Shown: piece by piece, positions 3,313 to 37,983 of the stretch
Layout of the letters: every line of letters starts with the position of its first letter
Numbering within the stretch: position 1 is the stretch's first letter
DNA from: Tubulanus polymorphus
Lineage: Eukaryota > Animalia > Nemertea
Direction: 5' to 3'
NCBI RefSeq assembly: GCF_964204645.1
Contig: NC_134032.1
Span: 1,794,416 to 1,858,415 of the forward strand
DNA length: 64,000 nucleotides
The notes under the pieces: model-generated
The model's database searches: none
What the model saw: only the letters and a program-made list of their open reading frames with translations
What the model was told of the DNA's origin: nothing
Translations under genes and position numbers: made by a program

Positions 3313-3318
3313 GCCATT
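3313..3318. repeat. Left 6-bp target-site duplication GCCATT
   Basis: Identical GCCATT directly follows the right TIR at 19969-19974; 6-bp TSDs are typical of Polinton integrases. Confidence 0.95.
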
Positions 3319-3411
3319 AGTAATTAGAAAAGTGGGGTTTCAGGCCAGAGGGCGTGAGGGCGAGACACCACTCATCACCACAAGTAATTTTTTTTCCTTA
3401 TAAATGGGGGA
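3319..3411 (+). repeat. Left terminal inverted repeat (93 bp)
   Basis: AGTAATTAGAAAAGTGGGG...TAAATGGGGGA matches the reverse complement of 19876-19968 with one mismatch (3399); the first 80 bp are perfect. Confidence 0.97.
3385..3406 (+). promoter_or_regulatory. Representative copy of the element-wide TAATTTTT-N-WWATAAATG promoter/start motif
   Basis: TAATTT starts 19 nt before the ATG in 10 genes, and at equal spacing to TAAAT in the 9838 gene; 4 more genes have TAAAA at -19/-20; all 15 have TAAAT at the start. Confidence 0.75.
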
Positions 3412-6400
3412 GAATGAACACCAGCCAGAAAACAATAATGTCAATAAAAATCAATATTATTGCCAATATTGTAAAAAATACATCGATACATCTCATAAAA
3501 CACGACATGAAAAAACTGCAAATCATATAAAAAATGTAATAGATTTTGAAACTCCAGAAAATTCTAATGAAATAAAAGAACGATTAGAAAATATGAATGT
3601 GGATGAAATAAAATGTGAAGTTTGTAATGAATTTATAGTAAAAAGGAATTATAATAGACATCTCGAATCACAAAAACATTATAAAAATTTAAATAAAAAT
3701 GTTTTAGGATCAGAATATTTTGATAATAAACCTCAACAAGTAAAAGAATCAACTTCAAAAACTAAATCCATTTCAAATAAACCTTACATGGAAAATGTTA
3801 GAAATTATATTGATTCACTAGAAATAAAAGATACAATTGAAATCTTAGAAACATTACATAGTAAAATTGGTCCTGCAGCTATTATATTTAGATTTTTTAA
3901 AGGTACAACAATAGAAGATTATAGTAAATTTAATGAAATAATAGAAAAAATACTAGATTTGATAACAGATGTTGAATATCCAAAAATAAGTATCTCTGGG
4001 AAAGTAAGTTTTATAAAGTCAGAAGAAAAAATGGATTATAATATTCAAACACACTCTGAAGAAATAATTTCAAAAACACAAATAAAAGAGAAGTTAGAAA
4101 AAATATTAAATGAATTTAAACGTCATATTGAAGAAAGATATTTTGAGGGTTCTGGCTTAACATTAAATGAAATTATATATTTAGATTTAAATGTTTATAA
4201 TACAAAAAGAAATAAAACATCAAAAAGTAATAAAATGTTTAAAAATGATTCAAACTTTACAACAGAAAAGGATATTAAAGCATCAAGTTATATCAAATTA
4301 CCATTTATAACAAAAGCAGTAATAAATATTCAAAATGAAGATAATAAATGTTTTCTATGGTCAATTATTAGTTGCTTACATCCAACAGAAGAACATGTTT
4401 ATAGAATAACAGATTACCGGAAATATGAAACATTATATAAAATTGATCAATATCCAGTAACTATAAAAATGATTCCTAAAATAGAAAAAGTTAATAATTT
4501 AAAAATAAATGTATTTGAATTAATGCAATTACCAAAGACAAAAGGTGAAAATATTAAAGATTATACATTGGAAGCTTTATATTTAACAGAATATTATGAT
4601 GATGAAAATGCTATAGATTTGTTATATTACAAAAAAGATGAAAATGAACATTATATGTGGTTAAAACAAATTGATTTATTCTTTAGAACAACAGAAAGTG
4701 ATCATCATCGTAAAATTTATCTTTGTAGAAAATGTTTATCTAAATTTATGACAGAGAATACATTATTAAAACATAAAGAATTATGTGATAATAAAGATTT
4801 TTGTAAATTAATAATGCCAACAGAAAAAGATTATAAATTGAAATTTACTAATCATAAATTTAAAAATATTGTTCCATTTGTAATTTATGGGGATTTTGAA
4901 TCGTTGAATAAAGAATTAACTGATCAAGATAGAAAAGAAATATATAACAAAAAGCAATTATTAAAATCAATGGATAAAGGAAATGAATTAAATGAAGACA
5001 CAATACAAGACCCACCAATTATAAATACAATTAAAAAAGTTCATCAAAGAGCTGCTGCTTATGGAATTTATATAAAATCAAATTATCCTGAATTATATGA
5101 AAGTCAATATATTTCTTTTAGAGGTGAAAATGTAGTTAATGATTTTTGTGATAAAATGATTGAATTAGAAAGTGATTTTGCAAAATTATTAAACAAAAAT
5201 AAAAGAATAGTTATGACAAAAGAAGATGAAATTGATTTTAATTATGCAACTCATTGTTGTTATTGTGAAAAACGTTTTTATTCATTTGATAAAAGAGTTA
5301 GAGATCATGATCATTTGAATTCAAAATATCGTGGAGCTGCTCATGAAGATTGTAATTTACAAGCTAAAAAAGTAAATTTCGTACCAATATTATTTCATAA
5401 TTTATCAGGATATGATACCCATCTATTTATAAAACAATTATCGGGAAAATTGGGTGCAATTAATCAAGAAATAGAAGAATATAATGCTATGAATGAAGCA
5501 AATGTAAGAAAATATGATTTTAAACTATTAGCTAAAACATCTGAAAATTATATTTCATTTCAATTTGGTTGCATTAGATTTTTAGATTCTTATAGATTTC
5601 TAGCAAGTTCATTAGATAATTTATCAAAATCATTAGTTGATAATGATTTTATTATAACTCGATATTATTATCCAAATGAACAAGATTTTAAATTATTGAG
5701 ATATAAAGGCGCAATTCCTTATTCATTTTATAAAACACATGATGATTTTAATGTAACAGAATTATTAAAAGATCAATTTTATGATCAATTAAAAGAGGAG
5801 TATGTGAAAGACGAAGTTTTTAATAGAACATTAAATATTTGGAACCATTTTAATATGAAAAATCATGGTGAATTAGTTGATTTATATTTAAAATCAGATG
5901 TTATGATATTGGCAGATATATTTGAAAAGTTTAGAGAAGTTAATCTAAACCATTTCAATGTTGACCCTTGTTATTGTTATTCAAGTCCTGGTTTAACCTG
6001 GCAATGTGGTTTAAAATATACAAATGTAGAATTAGATTTATTAAAAGAACCAGATATGGTTTTATTATTTGAAAAATCAATTAGAGGTGGAATTAGTGGT
6101 GTTATGGGAGATAGGTATTTTAAAGCAAATGATGAATATAAATTATTATATATTGACGCTAATAATTTATATGGTTGGGCAATGATGCAACCTCAACCAT
6201 ACAAAAATTTTATATTAACTGAAGTTGAAAATGATGATAAAACTGACTGGGAAAGCGCAATTACGAGTTTAAAAGATGAAGCACCAATTGGTTATTTCTT
6301 TGTAGTTGATTTGGAATATCCCGAAAATATTAAATTTAAAACAAGAAACTTGCCATATTGCCCTGAACATTTAGCCGTAGATGATAGTTATTTAAGTGAA

Positions 6401-8470
6401 TACCAGAAGAAAGTAAAACCGAAAGATCATGTTTTTACGGAAAAATTAATACTTACTCAAAATAATAAATACAATTATATTGTTCATTATAGAATGTTAA
6501 AATTTTATCTAAAACAAGGAATGAAATTAAAGAAAGTACATAGATATATTGAATTTAATCAATCGAAGTGGTTAGAAAAATATATAGATTTCAATACTCA
6601 ACAGAGAACCATATCAAAAACAGATTTTGAAAAAGATTTCTTCAAATTAATGAATAATAGTTTTTATGGTAAAACTTGTGAGAATATTCGTAATAGAAAC
6701 GATATTGAATTAGTAAATAATTCTGAACGATTGAGACACCTACAATCAAGTCCTAGACATTTAGGAAATAAAAGATTTGAAGATTATTTAACAGCAGTTA
6801 AATTAAAAAGAACATCAATGAAATTTAATAAACCTATATTTATTGGTTCGACTGTTTTAGAAGTATCAAAATTATTAATGTATGATTTTTATTATAATGT
6901 TTTACAACCACTTTTTGGAGAAAAACATATAGAAATATTATATTTTGATTCTGTAACAGCTGACACCCCAATATTATTAAAATACAATAACCAAATATTA
7001 ATTAGAAGAATTTCAGAAATAATTCCTAATCAAAATAAATCTTATATTTCATATGGTGAAAAAGAATTAATACAAATAAATGGATTAATGGATGTTTGGA
7101 CAAGAAATGGATGGAAAAAATTAAAGAATATTATTAGACATAAAACAAATAAGAAAATCTACAGAGTTAGAACTAAATTAGGATTTGTAGATGTTACAGA
7201 AGATCATAGTTTAATTAAACAAAATGGTGATGAAATAAAACCAACTAATATAAAAATTGGAGATGAATTATTACATAAAAGATTTTACCCAAGAATGAAT
7301 CATATGTCATTTGATGAAATAATTGATAATATTTATAATATAGAACCCGAAACATTAGAAGAAAAAGAATATTTTATCAAAGGATTTTTCATGGGTGATG
7401 GTTCAGCAGGTGTGTATAATTATGTTAGTGGAACTAAATATTGTTGGTATTTATGCAATCAAGACTTAAAATTATTAGAAAGAATTAAGAAATTCTGTGA
7501 AGAAGTTTATTCACATAAAACATTCAAAATCATAGATGTTATGAAATCATCGCAATGTTATAGAATACATGTGAATAATCCTAAAGATTTTGCTACAAAA
7601 TATAATGATGAATTCTATATTCATGCAATAGTGAAAAGTAATACTTCGACAAAAGAAAAGATAGTTCCAGATTATGTATTAAATGCAAAAAATAATTTAA
7701 GAAAATGGTTCTTCATTGGATTCTATGCAGCAGATGGTGCTAAAAAATTTACAAAGGATAAAAAGATAACCTTTGCACAGAAAGGAAAAGTTGCTATATC
7801 AGGGTTAAATATATTATGTAATTCATTAGGCTTCAATATGAATATTGGATTGATTAAATCTAAACCAAATTGCTTTAATCTAAGCCACACAGAAAAAGAT
7901 TTAACTGAAGAAGTTAAAGATTTATTTGAAATATATAACCCAACAGATTATGTTTATGATTTATCAACTGAAGATGGTACATTTAACTGTGGATTTCCAT
8001 TAATAGCAGTCAATACTGACGCCTACATACTAAAAATCAAGACAAATGACATAACAAAAGACTTAAAAACATTAAAACATCATTTTGATTTTAGCAATTA
8101 TCCCAAAGATCATGAACTATTTAGCAATGATAATAAAAAGATTCCCGGTAAATTTAAAGATGAATTAGGTGGTGAAGAAATGATAGAGTTTGTTGGGATA
8201 AGAAGTAAAATGTATTCATATAAAACTAAAGAACATGAAGCTAAAAAGTTAAAAGGAATAACAAAACATGTGGTTGATAAACATATAGAATTTCAAGATT
8301 ATATAAAGTGTTTATATAAATCAATTGTAATGAAACACAAAATGAATTGTTTAAGATCAGAAAATCATGAAATGTATATAAATGAAATTGAAAAAACTAG
8401 TTTAAATCCATTTGATGATAAAAGGCATATTTTAGATGATGGTATAAAAACATTACCTTATGGTTATTAA
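3404..8470 (+). CDS. polB: Protein-primed family B DNA polymerase precursor (1688 aa) with N-terminal C2H2 zinc fingers, an Endonuclease VII/HNH-like insertion and an intein
   Basis: ExoI VIYGDFES, ExoII FHNLSGYD, ExoIII YLKSDV, motif A YIDANNLYGWAM, motif B KLMNNSFYGK, motif C YFD...TD split by the intein; CxxC...RDHDH...RGAAHEDCN; CQYC/CEVC fingers. Confidence 0.97.
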   Translation: MGENEHQPENNNVNKNQYYCQYCKKYIDTSHKTRHEKTANHIKNVIDFETPENSNEIKERLENMNVDEIKCEVCNEFIVKRNYNRHLESQKHYKNLNKNVLGSEYFDNKPQQVKESTSKTKSISNKPYMENVRNYIDSLEIKDTIEILETLHSKIGPAAIIFRFFKGTTIEDYSKFNEIIEKILDLITDVEYPKISISGKVSFIKSEEKMDYNIQTHSEEIISKTQIKEKLEKILNEFKRHIEERYFEGSGLTLNEIIYLDLNVYNTKRNKTSKSNKMFKNDSNFTTEKDIKASSYIKLPFITKAVINIQNEDNKCFLWSIISCLHPTEEHVYRITDYRKYETLYKIDQYPVTIKMIPKIEKVNNLKINVFELMQLPKTKGENIKDYTLEALYLTEYYDDENAIDLLYYKKDENEHYMWLKQIDLFFRTTESDHHRKIYLCRKCLSKFMTENTLLKHKELCDNKDFCKLIMPTEKDYKLKFTNHKFKNIVPFVIYGDFESLNKELTDQDRKEIYNKKQLLKSMDKGNELNEDTIQDPPIINTIKKVHQRAAAYGIYIKSNYPELYESQYISFRGENVVNDFCDKMIELESDFAKLLNKNKRIVMTKEDEIDFNYATHCCYCEKRFYSFDKRVRDHDHLNSKYRGAAHEDCNLQAKKVNFVPILFHNLSGYDTHLFIKQLSGKLGAINQEIEEYNAMNEANVRKYDFKLLAKTSENYISFQFGCIRFLDSYRFLASSLDNLSKSLVDNDFIITRYYYPNEQDFKLLRYKGAIPYSFYKTHDDFNVTELLKDQFYDQLKEEYVKDEVFNRTLNIWNHFNMKNHGELVDLYLKSDVMILADIFEKFREVNLNHFNVDPCYCYSSPGLTWQCGLKYTNVELDLLKEPDMVLLFEKSIRGGISGVMGDRYFKANDEYKLLYIDANNLYGWAMMQPQPYKNFILTEVENDDKTDWESAITSLKDEAPIGYFFVVDLEYPENIKFKTRNLPYCPEHLAVDDSYLSEYQKKVKPKDHVFTEKLILTQNNKYNYIVHYRMLKFYLKQGMKLKKVHRYIEFNQSKWLEKYIDFNTQQRTISKTDFEKDFFKLMNNSFYGKTCENIRNRNDIELVNNSERLRHLQSSPRHLGNKRFEDYLTAVKLKRTSMKFNKPIFIGSTVLEVSKLLMYDFYYNVLQPLFGEKHIEILYFDSVTADTPILLKYNNQILIRRISEIIPNQNKSYISYGEKELIQINGLMDVWTRNGWKKLKNIIRHKTNKKIYRVRTKLGFVDVTEDHSLIKQNGDEIKPTNIKIGDELLHKRFYPRMNHMSFDEIIDNIYNIEPETLEEKEYFIKGFFMGDGSAGVYNYVSGTKYCWYLCNQDLKLLERIKKFCEEVYSHKTFKIIDVMKSSQCYRIHVNNPKDFATKYNDEFYIHAIVKSNTSTKEKIVPDYVLNAKNNLRKWFFIGFYAADGAKKFTKDKKITFAQKGKVAISGLNILCNSLGFNMNIGLIKSKPNCFNLSHTEKDLTEEVKDLFEIYNPTDYVYDLSTEDGTFNCGFPLIAVNTDAYILKIKTNDITKDLKTLKHHFDFSNYPKDHELFSNDNKKIPGKFKDELGGEEMIEFVGIRSKMYSYKTKEHEAKKLKGITKHVVDKHIEFQDYIKCLYKSIVMKHKMNCLRSENHEMYINEIEKTSLNPFDDKRHILDDGIKTLPYGY
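6950..8014 (+). mobile_element. Intein with LAGLIDADG homing endonuclease (355 aa, residues 1183-1537 of pPolB)
   Basis: Block A SVTADTPILL, block B VTEDHSL, LAGLIDADG-like FIKGFFMGDG and FFIGFYAADG, block F YVYDLSTE, terminal Asn followed by Thr+1; removal restores YFDTD. Confidence 0.95.
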
Positions 8471-9087
8471 AATGGATCTATATCATCAAACTCGAAATCA
8501 CTATTGGCTTCTTCATTTTCATTTAATTGTTCAGGTTCTTCTTCAATTCCATTTTTCTCATTTAAATAAATTTCTATCTTGTTCCACATTTCATCTCGCT
8601 CTCTTTGTTTCTTTTTGTTTGTTAATTCATCAAATGGAATTATAATATCTAGGTTTAAATAATTTACAATCTTATTTAAAAAGAATTCATAATTTATTGA
8701 ATCTGTTATTCTATTTTCCAAATGATACATTAATATTTGTTTAAATATTTTTTTTATATTTTCCATATCTTCTTCTGTTAATTTAGGTTTTTCATAATAA
8801 TCGTTAAATAATAAATATAAATACATTTTCTTTTCTTTTGTGTTAAATGTTGGTGGAATAATTGTTTTTATAATATCTTTTTTAGTTATTTCACCATTTT
8901 TATTTTCTATTATTTTCATTTTTTCAAGCCATTGCATATATTCTGGTGTATGATCTTCTATAGAAAATATTTTAAAAATTTCATCTAGATAATTTAATTT
9001 TGGTTCTATGAGAAAATCTCTAGTTTTTTCTTCACCCCATAAATTCTTTTGCCATCCGTCCACATTCAACACAAAATAACACAGCAC
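8467..9087 (-). CDS. Hypothetical protein with acidic tail; probably the 3' part of the zinc-finger gene 9769-9032 separated by a +1 frameshift
   Basis: Starts at GTG with no TAAATG motif; deleting one G of ATGGGGTGA (9040-9032) fuses the two ORFs as ...KEFMGEEKTRDF... Confidence 0.65.
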   Translation of the reverse strand: MLCYFVLNVDGWQKNLWGEEKTRDFLIEPKLNYLDEIFKIFSIEDHTPEYMQWLEKMKIIENKNGEITKKDIIKTIIPPTFNTKEKKMYLYLLFNDYYEKPKLTEEDMENIKKIFKQILMYHLENRITDSINYEFFLNKIVNYLNLDIIIPFDELTNKKKQRERDEMWNKIEIYLNEKNGIEEEPEQLNENEEANSDFEFDDIDPF

Positions 9088-9837: not shown

Positions 9838-10590
9838 ATGGTAGAATTAAAAGAATACAGAATATTTGTAGATTCTAGAAGGCTTACAAATTATAAATCT
9901 CATAATTTATTAATACAATTAGATAGAGAATTTAAGAATTGCGTTGATTTAAAATTAGTAAATATTAGTTTATGTAATTCTTTTTACAATGTAACGGATA
10001 AAAGTCTTGAACATTTAATTTTTTCAATCTTTTATAAAAAAAGGAATAAATGGTTTTTTATATATTTAAAACCAGGATTATATAATTTAAATACATTAGC
10101 ACAAGAAATTAATAGAAAAGCTCGAGCTAAATTAGGAAGTGATTCTGGATTTAATATTAGAATTTTAAAAAGTGCTAGTTCTAATAAAATAAAGATTAGG
10201 TTAGACGAACAATTTAAATTTACAGTAAGAAAACCTTTAGGTAAACTGTTAGGAATTGCCTCTGATATTGTTACAACATATGCAGAAGGTAAATCAAACT
10301 TAATACCTTTTACACATTTTTATATTTATTGTAATTTAATCGATCCTACAAAAACATTCAAAGCAACTAAAGATATAACTTGTAATTCTGGTTTACTAAA
10401 CATTTTACCATTGAAGAATGTTAAAGAATTTGGAACGCAAATAAATTATAATTTAACAGAATGTGATTTCAAACCATGCATTCCTAGTTTTAATAATTTT
10501 AAATTAGAAATAAGAAATCATAATGGATACTTAATTGATTTGAATAATTTCCCTGTAATTTATGAATTAGTTATAAGATGTAAAGAGTAA
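9838..10590 (+). CDS. Putative minor capsid (penton-like single jelly-roll) protein
   Basis: 250 aa, beta-rich; SFYNV..LKPGLYN..L..EIN, FYIYCNLI and C-terminal LEIRNHNGYLIDLNN pattern resembling Polinton pentons. Confidence 0.7.
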   Translation: MVELKEYRIFVDSRRLTNYKSHNLLIQLDREFKNCVDLKLVNISLCNSFYNVTDKSLEHLIFSIFYKKRNKWFFIYLKPGLYNLNTLAQEINRKARAKLGSDSGFNIRILKSASSNKIKIRLDEQFKFTVRKPLGKLLGIASDIVTTYAEGKSNLIPFTHFYIYCNLIDPTKTFKATKDITCNSGLLNILPLKNVKEFGTQINYNLTECDFKPCIPSFNNFKLEIRNHNGYLIDLNNFPVIYELVIRCKE

Positions 10591-13507: not shown

Positions 13508-14128
13508 ATGGAAGAAGATATTCCAATGGATACTTTAGATGAACCTGGTATAAGTGATGAACAACAACCTGATTTTGATGAAACAAGTTTCAGTAATGAT
13601 AATAAAACGGTATATAATACTAATTTAGGTGAAGATGATGATTATGATGATGATTATGATGATGATTATGATGATGGTCCCGAATTACGTGAAAAATTAA
13701 ATAAAATTAAAATTAAAATAACAGATACAATTGTTAACGAATTACTACCAAAAGATGTAATAGATGAAATTGATTCAGAAGAAATTGTAAAACAAATTTT
13801 AAAAGATGATCCATTTTTCATGAATAATTTAGAATTAAAAAATAATGTGTGGTATTATAATGTTGAATTAAATAACAAAATTGTATCAGTTCAATTATCT
13901 AAAATGAGACAAGAAAATCTGTTCCATCTAGAAATGCGAGCAAGATCTACAATTGAAGGTTCAAAAGGCGGTAGAGAATTTCTCAGAATTATATGGAATG
14001 CAATCAATAGAATAAATGAAGAAGAACCAATTCCTAATATTGATATAAACAAATATTCACCATTTAAAAATCCAAATCCGAATCCTACTGATTTTAATCC
14101 AGAGATGGAAGAGAATAGAAATCGATAG
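13508..14128 (+). CDS. Acidic N-terminal half of a probable 534-aa protein (13508-15113) split by a +1 frameshift
   Basis: DDDY repeats; the downstream frame is open across 14100-14222; removing one A near 14114 gives ...MEEIEIDRLRSS... Confidence 0.75.
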   Translation: MEEDIPMDTLDEPGISDEQQPDFDETSFSNDNKTVYNTNLGEDDDYDDDYDDDYDDGPELREKLNKIKIKITDTIVNELLPKDVIDEIDSEEIVKQILKDDPFFMNNLELKNNVWYYNVELNNKIVSVQLSKMRQENLFHLEMRARSTIEGSKGGREFLRIIWNAINRINEEEPIPNIDINKYSPFKNPNPNPTDFNPEMEENRNR

Positions 14129-14222: not shown

Positions 14223-15113
14223 ATGTTAGATGCAATTCATTCATTTGACGAAGAGATGAATAGTATTTTAGATACACCCGGTACTGAAACTGAAATAAAT
14301 CGAATACAATCTTTACTAGAAAAAGGATTACTTGATTTAACTGATGAAGAATTAAAACAATTTCCTGAAAAAGCACGTAGAGAAATTAAAGGTATGCAAG
14401 AATCAGCTGGTGAAATTGCTAATATTAAGATGAGATTTTCTAAAATAACCATGTTAGAAAAAGAATTAACTGATGCAAATGAAGAATTTAAACAATTAGA
14501 ATTAAATAGAGATCTTCAATTAATCGAGGAAGCTGATTATGAAAGCAGAAAGTTAGCTTTAGAAAAAGAAATAGATGATTTAGAATATAACATAAAATTA
14601 CAAAAAGAAGAAAGAGATACATTATTAAAATCATATGATCTTAATCATATTAAAAAATTAAAAGTTATTTTTAAAGATTTGTTGATTAAACCAGATTCTG
14701 AAATATCATTAAAAGACAGAATAAAATTATTATTTAAATTAGAAGGAATAACAATTCTTTCAATTCTAACAGCTGTAACTATGTTATTTACAACAATTGG
14801 TTTAGCTATATCAAATGCTTTGAAATCTACTCCTACTCCCACTCCCAATAAACCAGATAAACCCCCGAATGATAATTCTATACAAGATAAAGTTAAGGAT
14901 GGTTTAAAGAAATTAGCAAAATATTTATGGGAACTATCTAAAAAATCTGCTGCAGCATTGCCAGGAGTTATTGCTTCAATTGTTGGTTTTTTATTGAAAT
15001 CTGCAGGTAATATTCTTAACTTTGCTGCTGAACATATTATTTTATTTTTAATTACAGTTGTAAGTGCTATTATTTTTGGGTTAGTAAATATGATATCAAA
15101 AAATATCAAGTAA
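14223..15113 (+). CDS. Coiled-coil, multi-TM membrane protein (C-terminal half of 13508-15113)
   Basis: Long E/K/L heptad region, TM ITILSILTAVTMLFTTIGLAI, Pro-rich linker, two more hydrophobic helices; lacks its own TAAATG motif. Confidence 0.8.
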   Translation: MLDAIHSFDEEMNSILDTPGTETEINRIQSLLEKGLLDLTDEELKQFPEKARREIKGMQESAGEIANIKMRFSKITMLEKELTDANEEFKQLELNRDLQLIEEADYESRKLALEKEIDDLEYNIKLQKEERDTLLKSYDLNHIKKLKVIFKDLLIKPDSEISLKDRIKLLFKLEGITILSILTAVTMLFTTIGLAISNALKSTPTPTPNKPDKPPNDNSIQDKVKDGLKKLAKYLWELSKKSAAALPGVIASIVGFLLKSAGNILNFAAEHIILFLITVVSAIIFGLVNMISKNIK

Positions 15114-15157: not shown

Positions 15158-16405
15158 ATGAGTGGGAGTTATGTAAGTCCTTCGAAGAATCATAGAATAT
15201 CTAATGCTATTAAAGCAGAGAGATCACATCATATAATTACTCATAACCCTTCTAATATTAATCCCGATGAAACTTTATACGTTAGAATCCCTCGATTAAC
15301 ACAAAATACTTTTTATGTTCCAAACAGTATTTATTTATCAGCCGATATAAAAGTAACTGGCCATGATAACAATTATGTTGTTGATAATGTTGGAAGATAT
15401 TTGATTAAAAAATTAACTATAAAGATTGGTCCGGAAACAGTTTTCTCATTAGATGATTATAATTTATTTATGCATTATAAAGATTTATGGTTAACTAAAG
15501 AAAATAGAAATAATATGATATTTCAAGGCATCCAATCGGAAAACCATAATAAATTAAGATCTGAAGCCAATAATGCAGTAGTAACTCGTGCCACAGATAA
15601 TTTGATTAAAAAGATTTATGGAAGCAAATATAAAATTCCATTAGACTTTGAATTGATAAATAATAATGCACCTTTATATAAATACGCAATTCAAGAAGAT
15701 ATTATATTTGAGATAACATTTGCTCCTGTAAATGAAATTGTATTATCTAGCGTTGTTAAAGATATGGGTTATAAATTATCGAATATATGTTTAGAATATA
15801 ACACAGTAACTAATGAAAATATTGCTAGCACAATTCAAACTCAATACAATCAAGGATTTTCATTATTATATGATTATATTGATAAATTTAAAACTGTAAC
15901 TATTAATGCAAATGATGAAATAATTAATGAGAATATTAACTTTCCTAGAAGATCTATTAAAGGTATATTAATATTTTTTACTATTGCAACATATTCTAAT
16001 GGTGCAATAAATGTTGATAATTATTATAATCCTGAAATAACAAAAGTAGAAATAACTATTGAAGGTATAGCGAATAAAATATTTTGTCAAGGAATGAGAA
16101 TGATTGATCAATGGCCAGAAATTAGAAAACATTTTATGAATGAAAAAGTGAAATCATTTGAAAATTGTAACATTAATCAAATTGATTATTATACTGGTAA
16201 TAAATATGCATTATGGTTAGATTTTAGAACAACTGAAGATAACTTATTACATGGTTCTGGAAAAAAACTACAAAATACAAAAGATGGAATACAATTATTC
16301 ATGAAAAAGAATAAAGGAATCAAAAATTTTAAAATGCACATTTATATTATATCTGACGCGCAATTAAATATTGTAAATTCACAATTAGATAGTATTCAAT
16401 ATTAG
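15158..16405 (+). CDS. Putative major capsid protein (double jelly-roll)
   Basis: 415 aa, beta-rich; THNPSNINPDETLYVRIP, IKKLTIKIG, YKIPLDF, ALWLDFRT; size and position next to integrase and ATPase fit a Polinton MCP. Confidence 0.75.
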   Translation: MSGSYVSPSKNHRISNAIKAERSHHIITHNPSNINPDETLYVRIPRLTQNTFYVPNSIYLSADIKVTGHDNNYVVDNVGRYLIKKLTIKIGPETVFSLDDYNLFMHYKDLWLTKENRNNMIFQGIQSENHNKLRSEANNAVVTRATDNLIKKIYGSKYKIPLDFELINNNAPLYKYAIQEDIIFEITFAPVNEIVLSSVVKDMGYKLSNICLEYNTVTNENIASTIQTQYNQGFSLLYDYIDKFKTVTINANDEIINENINFPRRSIKGILIFFTIATYSNGAINVDNYYNPEITKVEITIEGIANKIFCQGMRMIDQWPEIRKHFMNEKVKSFENCNINQIDYYTGNKYALWLDFRTTEDNLLHGSGKKLQNTKDGIQLFMKKNKGIKNFKMHIYIISDAQLNIVNSQLDSIQY

Positions 16406-16435: not shown

Positions 16436-17543
16436 ATGGGAGGTAAAAAATCTCCTAATACTAAAGAACAATATTTAAGAAATTTATATTACAACCCTGA
16501 GAGTTCGGTTGCTTATTCTTCTACTAAAAATATATGGCGTAAAGTAAATAATCCCACAAAATTTAGTTAAATATAAAGATATAAATGAATTTATGTTAGA
16601 ACAACCAACGTATACAACACATAAAAAAATTGTTAGAAAATATAAAACTCGTAAAACTATGGTAAGTTATGTAGATCAACAGTGGCAAGGAGATTTAATT
16701 GATATGAAAAATGTTAAGAAAGATAATGATGATTATTGGTGGTTATTGAATATAATTGATATTTTTAGTCGTTATGTATGGAGCTTCCCACTTTATAGAA
16801 AAGATGCTGTACAAACATCAAATGTTTTAAGAAAATTTCTTTCGGATGATAAACTAAAACCAGAAAAAATACAATTTGATGATGGAAAAGAATTTGATAA
16901 TTCACTTATTCATGAACTCTTAGATAATCATAATATTAAATATTTTTCAACAAAATCAGATAAAAAAGCAGCAGTTGTTGAACGATTTAATAGAACATTA
17001 AGAACAAGAATGTGGAAATATTTTACAGCAAATAATACTTTTAAATGGATTGATATTTTACCAAAATTGATAGAAGGATATAATAATTCTTATCATTCTT
17101 CTATTGGAATGAAACCTATTGATGCTAGAAAACCTGAAAATGCTGAAATTGTTTGGAATAATTTATATGGAGCATTTCTTATAGATGATTTTGGCGAACC
17201 TAAATTTAAAGTTGGTCAAAATGTTAGAATTTCTAAGTATAAAAAGATATTTGATAAAGGATACGATCGAAATTTTACTAGAGAAATATATAAAATAAAA
17301 AAGGTAATAACAACAAAACCATATGTCTATAAATTAGAAGATTTAGATGGAGAAGAAGTTGATGGATATTTTTATGAAGAAGAATTAAGTTTAACTACTG
17401 AAAATCTAGAACAAGAATATAAAATTGAAAAAGTATTAAAAACAAAAACTGTTAAAAGAAAAAAATATTCTTTAGTAAAATGGGTTGGATGGCCAGATAA
17501 ATTCAATGAATGGATATTATCAAGTAAAATTAAAAATATATAA
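16436..17543 (+). CDS. Retroviral-like (RVE, DDE) integrase with C-terminal chromodomain; true start probably 16436 with a +1 frameshift at ~16548-16567 (ORF track shows 16593-17543)
   Basis: WQGDLIDM, IQFDDGKEF, AAVVERFNRTL catalytic triad; chromodomain YKIEKVL...LVKWVGWPDKFNEWI; upstream frame MGGKK...LYYNPESSVAYSS starts at TAAATG. Confidence 0.93.
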
Positions 17544-18152
17544 ATGAATAAGGAATTATTCATATTTGAGCCTCATAATATGTTAATTTCTGGTGTAACA
17601 AATTGTGGAAAAACGTATTTTATATTAAATTTATTAGAAACTGTTTACAAAAACTATTTTGATAATATAGTATTATTTTGTCCAACATATGAATTTAATC
17701 AAACTTATGATAGAAACATTACTAGAAATAATAAATTTATTATATTAGATCCTAAAACAGTAAAAGAAAATTTAGATAATTGTATAAAAATAGCAATTGA
17801 TATTTATAAAGGATCAAATACATTATTTATCATAGATGATTGTGCTAATCTACATGATTCAAAAGTTAGAGAAAGTGAGTTATGTTATTTAGCTTTCTCT
17901 GGAAGACATTTTGGGATAACAACTTGGGTTTTAAATCAAAAATATAATTCAATTGTTAAAGATTTTAGAGAAAACATTAGATTTCTAGTTTTATTCTACA
18001 ATAAAGATAGAAAATCAATGAAAAATGCACTTGAGGAAAATGATATTATTCCACATGATTTACATAATGAATATATGGATGAGTTGAAAAATATTAAAAG
18101 ATCAAAATTACTATTTAGATTACAACACCCATTTAAATATGAATTTATTTAA
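17544..18152 (+). CDS. A32/FtsK-HerA-like genome packaging ATPase
   Basis: Walker A GVTNCGKT, Walker B LFIIDD, GRH motif followed by ..LNQ. Confidence 0.92.
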   Translation: MNKELFIFEPHNMLISGVTNCGKTYFILNLLETVYKNYFDNIVLFCPTYEFNQTYDRNITRNNKFIILDPKTVKENLDNCIKIAIDIYKGSNTLFIIDDCANLHDSKVRESELCYLAFSGRHFGITTWVLNQKYNSIVKDFRENIRFLVLFYNKDRKSMKNALEENDIIPHDLHNEYMDELKNIKRSKLLFRLQHPFKYEFI

Positions 18153-18153
18153 A

Positions 18154-18426
18154 TTCAACTAGTTTGTTAATCTAATTGAATTCTAGTTACATTCTAGTTG
18201 AATTCTAGTTGTTAGTAGTTGAAACAAAAATCAATTAGATTTAACAATATTTCAACTAGCTTGTTAATCTATTTTAATTCTAGTTACATTCTAGTTGAAT
18301 TCTAATTGTTAGTAGTTGAAACAAAAATCAACTAGAATGTAACTAGAAATAAACAAAAACAACAATATTTCAACTAGCTTGTTAATCTAGTTGAATTCTA
18401 GTTACATTCTAGTTGAATTCTAGTTG
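18154..18426. repeat. Intergenic repeat: ~97-bp unit x ~2.7 built from ATTCTAGTTGA/ATTCTAGTTAC subunits with inverted copies
   Basis: TTCAACTAG-TTGTTAATCTA.. restarts at ~18154, 18251, 18369; inverted CAACTAGAATGTAACTAGAA at ~18329. Confidence 0.85.
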
Positions 18427-18457
18427 CAACAACACAACTAATTTGTTTGTTATATAA

Positions 18458-19556: not shown

Positions 19557-19883
19557 TTAATCAACAATTTCTAAATCATGATGGCCATCTTCATTTTTTC
19601 CATGATAGATTATTTTAAATCCTTCTAAATCTTTTAATTCCTCTGTACTCAATGAAGCCCATTTATCAGGTAAAAATACTTTAAATTCTCGCGATGTACT
19701 TACATTACAGTAGCTTAAATTAGCTGATACTTTCTCTCCATATTTAGTTTTTATCTTTTCTAATTTCAATATTTTATGTTCAATTTCTTTTGTAACATCA
19801 ACTAACTTTTTTATTTCAAATTGTTTTTTTGCTGGTTTTATTCTGTTATTTATTGTTGCTAAGAATGCTTTTCTATCCCCCAT
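19557..19883 (-). CDS. Small protein (108 aa) starting within the right TIR; possible OB-fold ssDNA-binding protein
   Basis: ATG lies in the TIR, mirroring the pPolB ATG; beta-rich KTKYG...VFLP...IIYHG pattern; function is inference only. Confidence 0.7.
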   Translation of the reverse strand: MGDRKAFLATINNRIKPAKKQFEIKKLVDVTKEIEHKILKLEKIKTKYGEKVSANLSYCNVSTSREFKVFLPDKWASLSTEELKDLEGFKIIYHGKNEDGHHDLEIVD

Positions 19884-19968
19884 TTATTAGGAAAAAAAAT
19901 TACTTGTGGTGATGAGTGGTGTCTCGCCCTCACGCCCTCTGGCCTGAAACCCCACTTTTCTAATTACT
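19876..19968 (-). repeat. Right terminal inverted repeat (93 bp)
   Basis: Reverse complement of 3319-3411, one mismatch. Confidence 0.97.
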
Positions 19969-19974
19969 GCCATT
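19969..19974. repeat. Right 6-bp target-site duplication GCCATT
   Basis: Matches 3313-3318. Confidence 0.95.
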
Positions 19975-21416: not shown

Positions 21417-22355
21417 ATGAATTCAACTGTAATCGGCCGAACTTATAATAGCTATATCCTGCTCATGTCTGTGGTGAACAAGTCTGGAATCAACCGTTAT
21501 TTCTCGCTGGCCGTACTGCCTGTCTTGTTCCTTTTAGGAGCCTTCGGAAATTCGGCAACTTTCCTGATAATGATCAGTCGCAGATTCCGCGGTTTATCTT
21601 ACGCTAACTATCTGATCGTTTTGTCTCTCAGCGATTCCATGTCATGTATCAATTTTACACTGGTGCCTGTTTTGCAGTTTGTTCTCTTCCACGTTAAAGA
21701 CGGTCCTATATTCATGATCTTTTCACTGATCGGTTGTCAAATATATGAATTCACAATGGCACTTGCAAACTGCAATAGTTCGTGGTTGATAGTAGCGGTA
21801 TCTCTAGAACGTGCGGCAGTTGTTCTCTTCCCGTTCACATCTCGTTTGATATGTACACCGAGAGTGGCTAGATTTACCATATTGATAATTAACGCAGTGA
21901 ATGTACTTGTTCTGAATCTCACACCAACTTTGTCGATTCATTTTCCCAACCGGTTTTTTGGATGTTTCTATGAATTATTTGACCAAATAACATATTTTGC
22001 GGTATTTGTCGCCTACGTTTTCGTATTGCCTTTATCTTTGATTCTAATATCTAATTCTATAATAATAATTCAGTTATTCAGAGGTTCAAAAATGGTTTCG
22101 TCCGATCAGAAAACCGCGAAATCAAAACGTACAGCGATAATGCTCGTAACAGTTTCACTCGCATTTGCAGTATTTACACTTCCATCAACTATTATCGCAT
22201 TTTTACCAATATCACCGGAACAGAGAGAATTTCTATATGACGTATTTGTGCAGTTTCAAGTTTTTAACTATGTGGTAAATTTCTACATATATCTTTTGCT
22301 GGGCCGAGAAATTCGTGAATATTTCTGTACAAAAATTCGCTGCTGTAGAACATAA
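21417..22355 (+). CDS. Single-ORF rhodopsin-family (class A) GPCR, divergent peptide-receptor-like
   Basis: Seven hydrophobic segments; TM1 GN, TM2 LSLSD, TM3 SLERA (DRY variant), TM6 FTLP, TM7 NFYIY. Confidence 0.9.
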   Translation: MNSTVIGRTYNSYILLMSVVNKSGINRYFSLAVLPVLFLLGAFGNSATFLIMISRRFRGLSYANYLIVLSLSDSMSCINFTLVPVLQFVLFHVKDGPIFMIFSLIGCQIYEFTMALANCNSSWLIVAVSLERAAVVLFPFTSRLICTPRVARFTILIINAVNVLVLNLTPTLSIHFPNRFFGCFYELFDQITYFAVFVAYVFVLPLSLILISNSIIIIQLFRGSKMVSSDQKTAKSKRTAIMLVTVSLAFAVFTLPSTIIAFLPISPEQREFLYDVFVQFQVFNYVVNFYIYLLLGREIREYFCTKIRCCRT

Positions 22356-36642: not shown

Positions 36643-37983
36643 TTACACCGAGTCCTCTTGTCGACCGTAGATTTTCAAGTAACCGTTTTTACCGGTCCGC
36701 ATTTCGGCCGCGGACGACGAACCGGACGCGTCGGCGTTGTTCGTAGCGCGTAGACTGGTCGCCTGCGTGCAGACGCTGGCACGCGGGCGCGCTCCGGGCG
36801 CCGATTGGTTACTGGCGGCGGCGGCGATCTCGGAGAACAGGCCGTCCGTCTGATTGGCCCGGTTATGCACGCATATGCAGAACAGACGTTTGAAAGTCTT
36901 ACGGAATTTCGTGCTGAACATACTGTACAGGATAAAGTTAATGGCGGCGTTTATTTGAATGAGTAAGTTTGTAAAGTTGCCCGCGATGCGGCGGTCGTTG
37001 TCTTGGCGAACGGTCAAGTCCTGTTTCCTGATAATCTCCGAGGATTTCATGAGTAACATGATCGCAGACGGTAGCTGGCAGATCAAGAACACGACCACGA
37101 CGCTGATGAGCATCACCGTAATTCGCTGTTGTTCCTGTTGGTGGCGCTCGCGTCGCGCGTCGCACGTCGACACGTCGACGCATATCATAGTCTTACGCGC
37201 TTTGTTGGCCTGCATCACCGAGTGTATGAGCAGCGAATTGAACACGGCCAGTAGGAGAAGCGGAATGAACGTGAACAGGGCCGTGTTGATCCAAAAATAG
37301 CCGATCTTCGCCAGCATCGTTCGGTAGGCGGTAGCGGCGAATTTGGGCGGTATGGTCGCGTTGGTTTTTCGGTCGACCAGTCCGTAGACGCATTTGTGCT
37401 CGAAAAAGTCCGGCAACGTGCACAGAAACGACACGCTGCACACGGCCGCTATGATCCACTTCGCCCGTTTGGTCGTGCAGATCACGCGGCCCTTCATCGG
37501 GTGACGCACCGCTATGTATCGCTCCGCGGTGAACGTTAACGTTAACCAGGTGCCCGTGTTGCTGAAATAGTTCGCCATGCAACGAACGACCGGGTAGAGA
37601 TTACAGAAAAACAAATTCAACTTCACGGCAGGGAAAGTCCGAAAGAACATGACAATAGATAGAAATAGGTAGAGAGTGTCTTGTAGAGCTAACATCGTCA
37701 GATAATAGTTCGTACTAGATCGCATCCACTTGCGGGTCAATACCGTCATGTTAACTACATTACCCAGAATTCCGCAAATGTCCACGAACACGGCTATCGG
37801 ACGCACGACTAACCGGACAGTGGCCAGTAGTTCTTTGGACCTCCGTTCGGCCTCGTCAGCGCTCATGTCCGAATCCGGATACATGTGCGATAGGTTGTAG
37901 TCGGCGCTGCCCACGCTGTAGTAGATACTTTCGTTCAACAGGGAAAGTTCGGGGGTGACGGCGAAATTGACCCCGGCCGTCAT
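36643..37983 (-). CDS. Class A neuropeptide GPCR, FMRFamide/sex-peptide-receptor-like (446 aa, single coding exon)
   Basis: [48 protein letters not shown]. Confidence 0.93.

Follow-up and report, generated by a model that had tools for sequence, protein, structure and literature searches.

A likely homing pol-c-type LAGLIDADG intein, predicted to splice, within motif C of a Polinton DNA polymerase in the genome of the nemertean Tubulanus polymorphus

Inteins of Mimivirus and archaeal family B DNA polymerases (PolB) occupy the pol-c site, YGD/TDS, where the slash marks the splice point (Ogata et al. 2005, PMC549080). For eukaryotic inteins, Green et al. 2018 (PMC5784728) name fungi, algae, some protists and four families of giant viruses, Iridoviridae among them, and the relevant passages of two surveys (PMC5784728, PMC7765530) name no animal hosts. 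Intein-bearing endogenous giant-virus genes have been described from a giant endogenous viral element (GEVE) of Chlamydomonas (bioRxiv 10.1101/2024.09.03.611062) and from Klebsormidium, Tetrabaena and Hondaea (Gallot-Lavallee et al. 2023, PMC10710043). Polintons, defined as elements of 13-25 kb with terminal inverted repeats (TIRs) of 100-1500 bp and a 5-8-bp duplication, can have HNH and VSR nuclease domains inserted in their protein-primed polymerase of the pPolB2 type (Jeong et al. 2023, PMC10748475). Krupovic et al. 2024 (PMC11071308), citing that work, offered in one sentence the guess that nuclease inserts in polinton pPolBs are intein invasions. Here we describe a Polinton in a 64,000-nt stretch of the T. 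polymorphus genome (contig NC_134032.1, positions 1,794,416 to 1,858,415; hereafter the window), whose pPolB gene carries a 355-codon insert in motif C. We consider it likely that this insert is a LAGLIDADG intein of the pol-c type that is predicted to splice itself out, that is likely to home, and whose lineage likely goes back to giant viruses.

The polymerase gene and the parts of the insert have the following layout (positions are those of the window):

3404-8470, + strand: pPolB open reading frame (ORF), 1688 aa, no stop
3404-6949, + strand: pPolB N-extein, 1182 aa, with zinc fingers, an HNH/EndoVII-like insert, Exo I-III, Pol A, Pol B and YFD, the first half of motif C
6950-8014, + strand: class 1 intein, 355 aa, with a nested two-motif LAGLIDADG endonuclease (from translation, profiles, predicted fold and alignment)
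6950-6979, + strand: intein block A with the Ser1 nucleophile
7196-7207, + strand: intein block B, TEDH
7373-7402, + strand: first LAGLIDADG helix (block C), FIKGFFMGDG, acidic residue D150
7709-7738, + strand: second LAGLIDADG helix (block E), FFIGFYAADG, acidic residue D262
7949-8014, + strand: intein blocks F and G with D337, the terminal N355 and a penultimate Val; block F lacks His
8015-8470, + strand: pPolB C-extein, 151 aa, whose first residues are Thr+1 and motif C's second aspartate

In the translation, the insert comprises residues 1183-1537 (SVTADTP...FPLIAVN) and lies between ILYFD and TDAY, and the two aspartates of motif C are thus separated by 355 residues within a single 1688-aa frame. 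A sequence-only reading of the window had claimed an in-frame, stop-free insert of 355 aa splitting motif C, and the translation of 6950-8014 reproduced it; the 1333 aa that it gave for the enzyme after splicing agree with 1688 minus 355, and its positions for TEDH and the LAGLIDADG-like helices were correct to within a few bases. An intron was ruled out, as the insert is in frame and stop-free and its ends are not GT-AG. The polymerase itself gave a PF03175 match of 63.8 bits on 5561-6949, and the N-extein shows Exo I-III, followed by Pol A and Pol B, in the expected order, under the labels customary for pPolBs. In the nearest polymerase relatives, which are 72% identical, motif C is unbroken and the gap at the intein site is exactly 0. 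For the HNH/EndoVII-like insert, the evidence consists of weak PF02945 matches in close relatives and a motif at position 5300 of the window, and the polymerase is a candidate member of the divergent pPolB2/Beta class.

To the profiles for Hint and LAGLIDADG domains the gene gave matches above the cut-offs. Pfam Intein_splicing scored 40.8 bits on the whole ORF (cut-off 35.8) and 29.3 bits, below the cut-off, on the insert alone; LAGLIDADG_3 scored 26.3 bits on the insert (cut-off 22.5) and TIGR01445 32.7 bits (cut-off 24.5). The top sequence match in the Protein Data Bank was PI-PkoII with an E-value of 3e-8. An AlphaFold model of the insert, built with 13 sequences, reached a predicted template modelling score (pTM) of 0.88 and a mean local confidence (pLDDT) of 84.8, and places the LAGLIDADG helices at insert residues 136-150 and 248-262. 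The top Foldseek matches of this model were all nuclease-bearing inteins (TliVMA, PI-PkoII, PhoVMA, PI-PfuI and PI-SceI), followed by I-DmoI for the nuclease part at a root-mean-square deviation of about 3.3 Å. With TliVMA (7qsu), PI-PkoII (2cw7), PI-PfuI (1dq3) and PI-SceI (1vde) the insert shares a common two-domain fold (TM-score 0.45-0.67 over the query), but these four are only 11-18% identical to it and reside in archaeal or yeast proteins.

The catalytic residues were compared in an alignment of 116 inteins, made up of the window intein and 115 relatives, after five of the 120 listed matches without a clear end had been dropped. Ser1 and the terminal Asn were set by the way in which the relatives were cut, and their presence in 116 of 116 is no evidence. 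Block B T83, D85 and H86 are invariant, as are G145 and G257, and block F D337 is kept in 115 of the 116. In the nuclease part, D150 is found in 109, D262 in 111 and K278 in 104 of the aligned inteins, and both nuclease aspartates are retained in all ten listed pPolB inteins. The window intein holds S1, T83, H86, D337, N355 and Thr+1, the class 1 set. Profiles, fold and aligned residues together bear out the blocks A, B, F and G and the two LAGLIDADG helices that had been noticed from the letters, and the insert is almost certainly a real intein. A Hedgehog-type or bacterial intein-like Hint domain was ruled out by the nested nuclease, the presence of both splice junctions and the uninterrupted relatives.

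An intein at the same D/T site was found in ten pPolBs among the 120 matches listed of 315 long matches. These ten take in the seven best matches, bar one topoisomerase further down, and are 42-65% identical to the window intein. Among the first 26 of 42 shorter matches, 24 are Polinton-like, 21 of these with visible pPolB flanks, and many are fragments. The assignment to the pol-c site, already claimed from the sequence, holds, with the insertion at D/T of motif C and the closest kin at the same site. Collections of viruses, metagenomes and prokaryotes contained a pPolB at only one of 207 loci (L038, on metagenome contigs), where the intein frame is broken and the intein-plus gene corresponds to the listed P0166; a PolB of the YGD/TDS type was seen in 185 of the 193 loci with a readable left junction. 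The nearest matches outside pPolBs are giant-virus contigs, with 37-43% identity. Four of the six giant-virus bins checked among the best viral matches are Imitervirales in the supplement of PMC8575486, and the other two fall outside its table. One listed match (P0102) carries the annotation of a green-algal Pol delta. A profile search with representatives gave 2117 matches, and among the 137 new proteins listed none had a pPolB extein match.

In the comparison of intein with extein trees, the pPolB inteins formed one clade (99 by the Shimodaira-Hasegawa-like approximate likelihood ratio test, SH-aLRT, among the 116 rows of a quick tree, and 100/99 among the 27 rows of a careful one), and their presence was scattered over the polymerase tree. 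The window intein belongs to this Polinton-specific clade, which likely goes back to one old entry. A giant-virus origin of the lineage seems quite probable from the sequences, because the PolB inteins around the pPolB clade show greater diversity. That the window element took its intein directly from a giant virus in recent times was ruled out, as the intein groups with the other pPolB inteins; the guanine-cytosine (GC) content of the intein (25%, exteins 23-25%) and the DNA at viral junctions, which matches at no more than 14 of 18 bases in 176 loci, likewise count against it. The large-DNA-virus source that the sequence-only reading had proposed was thus upheld in the kinship to giant-virus PolB inteins and dropped as a fresh capture, the clade being Polinton-specific.

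Two side observations concern the wider family. Nine type II topoisomerases (P0008, P0090, P0100, P0105, P0108, P0115, P0118, P0119 and P0121) carry inteins belonging to it, mostly at a DQD/TDG-like site; together they form one clade, which represents a move to a non-homologous, similar-looking site. An intein-plus pPolB fragment (P0011) lies on a 2.5-kb contig filed under a bacterial symbiont bin of a lucinid clam. This is likely host DNA and hints at a bivalve carrier.

The intein site is uninterrupted in 109 of the 118 nearest polymerase relatives; nine gave no call, two of which hold the start of an intein. On a tree of 58 polymerases (11 intein-plus and 47 intein-minus, with distant relatives sampled every third), intein presence required 9 changes, about as many as shuffled labels (10.3). 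Plus and minus alleles coexist inside the same 90%-identity clusters. In the cluster of P0003, seven full intein-plus and five intein-minus members (346 aa shorter) were present among 15 members listed of 136. Plus and minus members are 90-100% identical per bin up to residue 1031 and 60% identical in the 10 residues on either side of the site; around the site, 6 of 14 residues differ, as against 11-24 of about 430 elsewhere, in pairs that are not independent. The minus alleles of this cluster show three distinct junction variants. In one comparison of related rows, the 14 site-flanking residues change at the same pace as the remainder of the enzyme in the invaded lineage (69 rows), and are nearly invariant in a lineage where no intein was seen (23 rows). 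Such flank divergence, in the cluster and in the invaded lineage, is expected from co-conversion of the flanks or from nuclease escape. P0005, a polymerase with a strong PF03175 match and no BLAST similarity to the window N-extein, carries a 46% identical intein that is nested in the pPolB clade, and forcing this intein out of the clade was rejected (approximately unbiased test, p-AU 0.005). This implies a jump between polymerase classes. Taken from these sequences, the intein lineage has quite probably homed among Polintons. The homing among Polinton copies that had been claimed at first reading therefore gains comparative signs in related elements, and cleavage remains a prediction.

A separate observation is that Cys replaces the motif C Thr (YMDCDS) in many intein-free pPolBs of the invaded lineage (P0156-P0273 and the P0003 cluster), at an otherwise near-fixed position. 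These forms are possibly nuclease-escape variants.

The element that carries the intein measures 16,650 bp (16.6 kb) and has 24% GC, as compared to 42% outside. Besides pPolB, the following features were recognized:

3313-3318, no strand: left target-site duplication, GCCATT, the same six bases as at 19969-19974
3319-3411, + strand: left TIR, 93 nt, containing the pPolB start codon; 99% complementary to 19876-19968
8467-8937, - strand: VLTF3-like late transcription factor ORF (PF04947, 27.8 bits against a cut-off of 25)
9838-10590, + strand: possible minor capsid protein, a weak call (DUF5901, E 5e-4, below the cut-off)
15158-16405, + strand: probable major capsid protein (Capsid_N, E 0.01, below the cut-off; size and position)
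16593-17543, + strand: retroviral-type integrase with chromodomain (rve, 41.5 bits against 32.6; Chromo, E 5e-5)
17544-18152, + strand: A32-type packaging ATPase (Pox_A32, 50.4 bits against 22.8)
19876-19968, - strand: right TIR, pairing with the left repeat
19969-19974, no strand: right target-site duplication, GCCATT, a perfect 6-bp match to the left copy

A pPolB and a retroviral-type integrase thus occur together, as in Polinton/Maverick elements, and with the A32 ATPase, the TIRs and the target duplication they confirm the Polinton context read from the sequence at the outset. Relative to the definition in PMC10748475, the length and the 6-bp duplication fit and the 93-nt TIR falls slightly below the range. 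An adenovirus-like maturation protease, which is typical and not obligatory, was found neither among the element ORFs profiled nor in a six-frame motif scan, and a PHROGs search of the remaining element ORFs gave nothing useful.

The start codons of the element follow a pattern. In 12 of its 16 ORFs the start reads TAA-ATG, as compared to 49 of 670 ATGs overall, and most of these have TAATTTTT about 20 nt upstream. We take this arrangement to resemble poxvirus-type late promoters. Together with the VLTF3-like gene, it may reflect a transcription machinery of giant-virus type, which may also have been a route for the intein. Each 93-nt repeat supplies a terminal gene with its upstream motif and start codon; the gene is pPolB at the left end and a 108-aa ORF (19557-19883, - strand) at the right. 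Two adjacent ORFs in different frames (13508-14128 and 14223-15113) are possibly one gene in two pieces; the latter lacks the start motif, and read depth falls there. At 18154-18454, after the ATPase gene and ahead of the following ORF, lie three copies of an 86-nt repeat that contains inverted arms.

The DNA next to the element is of animal type:

21417-22355, + strand: host flank, ORF of a rhodopsin-family G protein-coupled receptor (GPCR) (7tm_1, 59.4 bits)
36643-37983, - strand: host flank, ORF of an FMRFamide-receptor-like GPCR (7tm_1, Srw; Atlas clusters)

For the second of these, the nearest Atlas clusters are all eukaryotic, with Mollusca, Arthropoda, Nematoda or Chordata as the commonest phyla. 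At the level of the assembly, the duplication and the GPCR genes show that the element is integrated in animal nuclear DNA and contiguous with the host, and the animal-genome setting named at first reading stands on the GCCATT copies at both ends and these flanks. In the same host DNA, positions 1017-1778 hold an array of units of about 155 nt in which inverted repeats are nested; these units probably represent a family of non-autonomous transposons.

Four public runs from two studies, under one species label, contain the element including the intein at high depth and with many variants. The intein is covered by the raw reads of one run and by contigs of the three others, and one contig runs gap-free through the left intein junction. 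As several runs hold the intein and the junction is crossed, the insert is no assembly artefact. Judging from depth and variants, the element looks multi-copy. Depth along it ranged from about 37 to 970 in run X5 at 90% likeness; the bin lying wholly in the intein had about 160 and the neighbouring polymerase bins 244-265, figures from which no allele ratio was drawn. In one X1 contig, position 6946 is followed, after a stretch of undetermined letters, by 8153; this contig is an unconfirmed candidate for an intein-minus allele with a divergent downstream part.

Several observations weigh against an intein lineage of giant-virus descent that homes, and they have to be set beside the alternative that the intein splices and has lost homing, so that a single gain was followed by inheritance with the element and many precise losses. 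We consider this alternative unlikely. The intein tree mostly tracks the polymerase clades, which fits one gain with many losses equally well, and its root is unsure, with no strong support for any sister group and hence for any particular donor. Broken intein-bearing copies exist, in L038 and among the many fragments. For the window species, no clean intein-skipping joint was found among the 15 read joints listed (262 more lie beyond these), so that the survey of plus and minus siblings found both alleles in related elements and no minus allele among the listed joints of this species. In a second cluster (P0139/P0142), the flanks of plus and minus members are identical, and between the window intein and its closest minus relatives just 2 of the 14 flanking residues differ; the flank signal thus comes from one lineage. 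Moreover, the P0005 hypothesis was chosen after an earlier tree had been seen, and P0005 is known from its polymerase alone. What speaks against lost homing is that both nuclease aspartates are kept in ten of ten pPolB inteins that are only 42-65% identical to that of the window, that intein presence is scattered on the polymerase tree, that P0005 implies a horizontal jump, and that the divergence in the P0003 cluster peaks at the site, which is unexpected under precise loss.

The window intein also lacks two residues, the penultimate His (here Val354) and the block F His, which are given as usual for inteins (PMC7765530), and its splicing could be slow. If splicing were poor for want of these two helpers of Asn cyclisation, the polymerase of this copy would be dead and the element moved by other copies. 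A penultimate Val was seen in only five of the 116 aligned inteins, in line with this idea. However, 56 of the 116 lack both His residues, and because many of these sit in giant-virus-type polymerases that are essential and have to be spliced, their absence makes splicing only slightly less likely. No stop interrupts the 5-kb frame, the TIRs match at 99%, the duplication is perfect and many intein-bearing copies occur in the reads, and poor splicing appears quite improbable to us; judged by its sequence, the window intein is very probably able to splice. A contaminant virus or protist, assembled into a host scaffold, would explain why no piece of the read sets spans the entire element with its flanks and why the nearest polymerase relatives sit on short contigs. 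Misassembly, on the other hand, would hardly place a 6-bp duplication precisely at the two TIR ends, and the rhodopsin-family GPCRs in the flanks and the depth and variants in four runs of two studies make such contamination highly implausible.

Under the favoured account of a splicing, homing intein in an integrated Polinton, the active site could not form while motif C is split, and the element would depend on splicing, as the structure of family B polymerases and class 1 chemistry suggest. Splicing would begin with an acyl shift at Ser1, aided by the block B Thr and His and the block F Asp. Transfer to Thr+1 and cyclisation of Asn355 would then release the 1333-aa pPolB and the free endonuclease. 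The nuclease would cut the uninterrupted motif C codons in sibling Polintons; the cut copies would be converted when repaired from one that has the intein, and a few flanking codons would be carried along, while variant target sites would escape. Many Polinton copies in one nucleus would offer homing targets without sex or co-infection, and the intein could persist in an animal because a multi-copy element supplies such targets. As to its history, one old entry from a PolB of Nucleocytoviricota type may have been followed by homing, decay and loss among pPolB2/Beta-type Polintons, with one or more moves to a pPolB class of a very different kind. The widest version of this account, namely a living intein lineage in animal genomes that was captured from a giant virus, acts as a gene drive among the numerous Polinton copies within one genome, has crossed between the two pPolB classes and drove the ordinarily near-invariant motif C of the invaded lineage to diversify into nuclease-resistant variants, seems to us evenly poised between right and wrong.

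If it is true, homing inteins have in Polintons their first known animal reservoir, and the intein records a past contact of animal Polintons and giant viruses in the same cell. The locus shows one route by which an intein can persist in animal nuclear DNA, namely in a multi-copy virus-like element, where a sibling copy is all that homing needs. The finding, which would surprise specialists of inteins and of Polintons alike, makes the activity of Polintons testable: whether their polymerases are made and matured (a junction peptide being the proof), whether integrated copies recombine (from conversion tracts), and whether animal Polintons and giant viruses were once in the same cells (from the ancestry of the intein). 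Inteins can also make pPolB genes appear overlong or broken in surveys, and in practical terms the locus offers an intein and a meganuclease that have evolved in animal cells.

In a literature search that did not extend to subscription papers, Repbase reports and bioRxiv supplements, no Hint-domain intein was described from any pPolB, Polinton or animal genome. The words intein, Hint and LAGLIDADG do not occur in the main text and searched supplement of Jeong et al. 2023 (PMC10748475), nor does intein occur in the searched text of Starrett et al. 2021 (PMC8502044), PMC13215967 or bioRxiv 10.64898/2026.10.13.758929; in the text of PMC12220804, PMC3671162 and PMC5718144 it is used only in a general sense. 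The claim that inteins are unreported from animal nuclear genes thus survives for animals, with two limits: the carrier is not a host gene, being an endogenous virus-like element, and algal nuclear genomes have already yielded inteins in the polymerases of endogenous giant viruses.

In comparison with the known systems, the pol-c inteins of giant-virus and archaeal PolBs share with the window intein the motif C site, Ser1, Asn and Thr+1, the block B Thr and His, a nested LAGLIDADG nuclease and a length of about 350 aa. They differ in their RNA- or DNA-primed PolB hosts, whereas the host here is the protein-primed pPolB of a 16.6-kb integrating element and the pPolB inteins form a clade of their own. 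The inteins of algal endogenous giant viruses are alike in interrupting a viral gene for DNA polymerase that sits on a nuclear scaffold of a eukaryote; there, the hosts are algae and a labyrinthulomycete and the carrier is a giant virus, while here an animal holds a multi-copy Polinton. Nuclease domains within pPolB are shared with the HNH/VSR inserts of pPolB2, and the window pPolB has an HNH-like insert as well, but those inserts are fused domains, unlike the window insert with its full Hint splicing domain in the catalytic motif and its plus and minus alleles in relatives. The Beta adintovirus or pPolB2-type animal Polintons (Starrett et al. 2021, PMC8502044) resemble the window element in TIRs, 6-bp duplication, divergent pPolB, rve integrase, A32 ATPase and probable capsid genes, and differ from it in that the window element has a VLTF3-like gene and no protease that we could find. 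The intein is of the known class 1 pol-c type, and it is the kind of host gene and the kind of host genome that are new.

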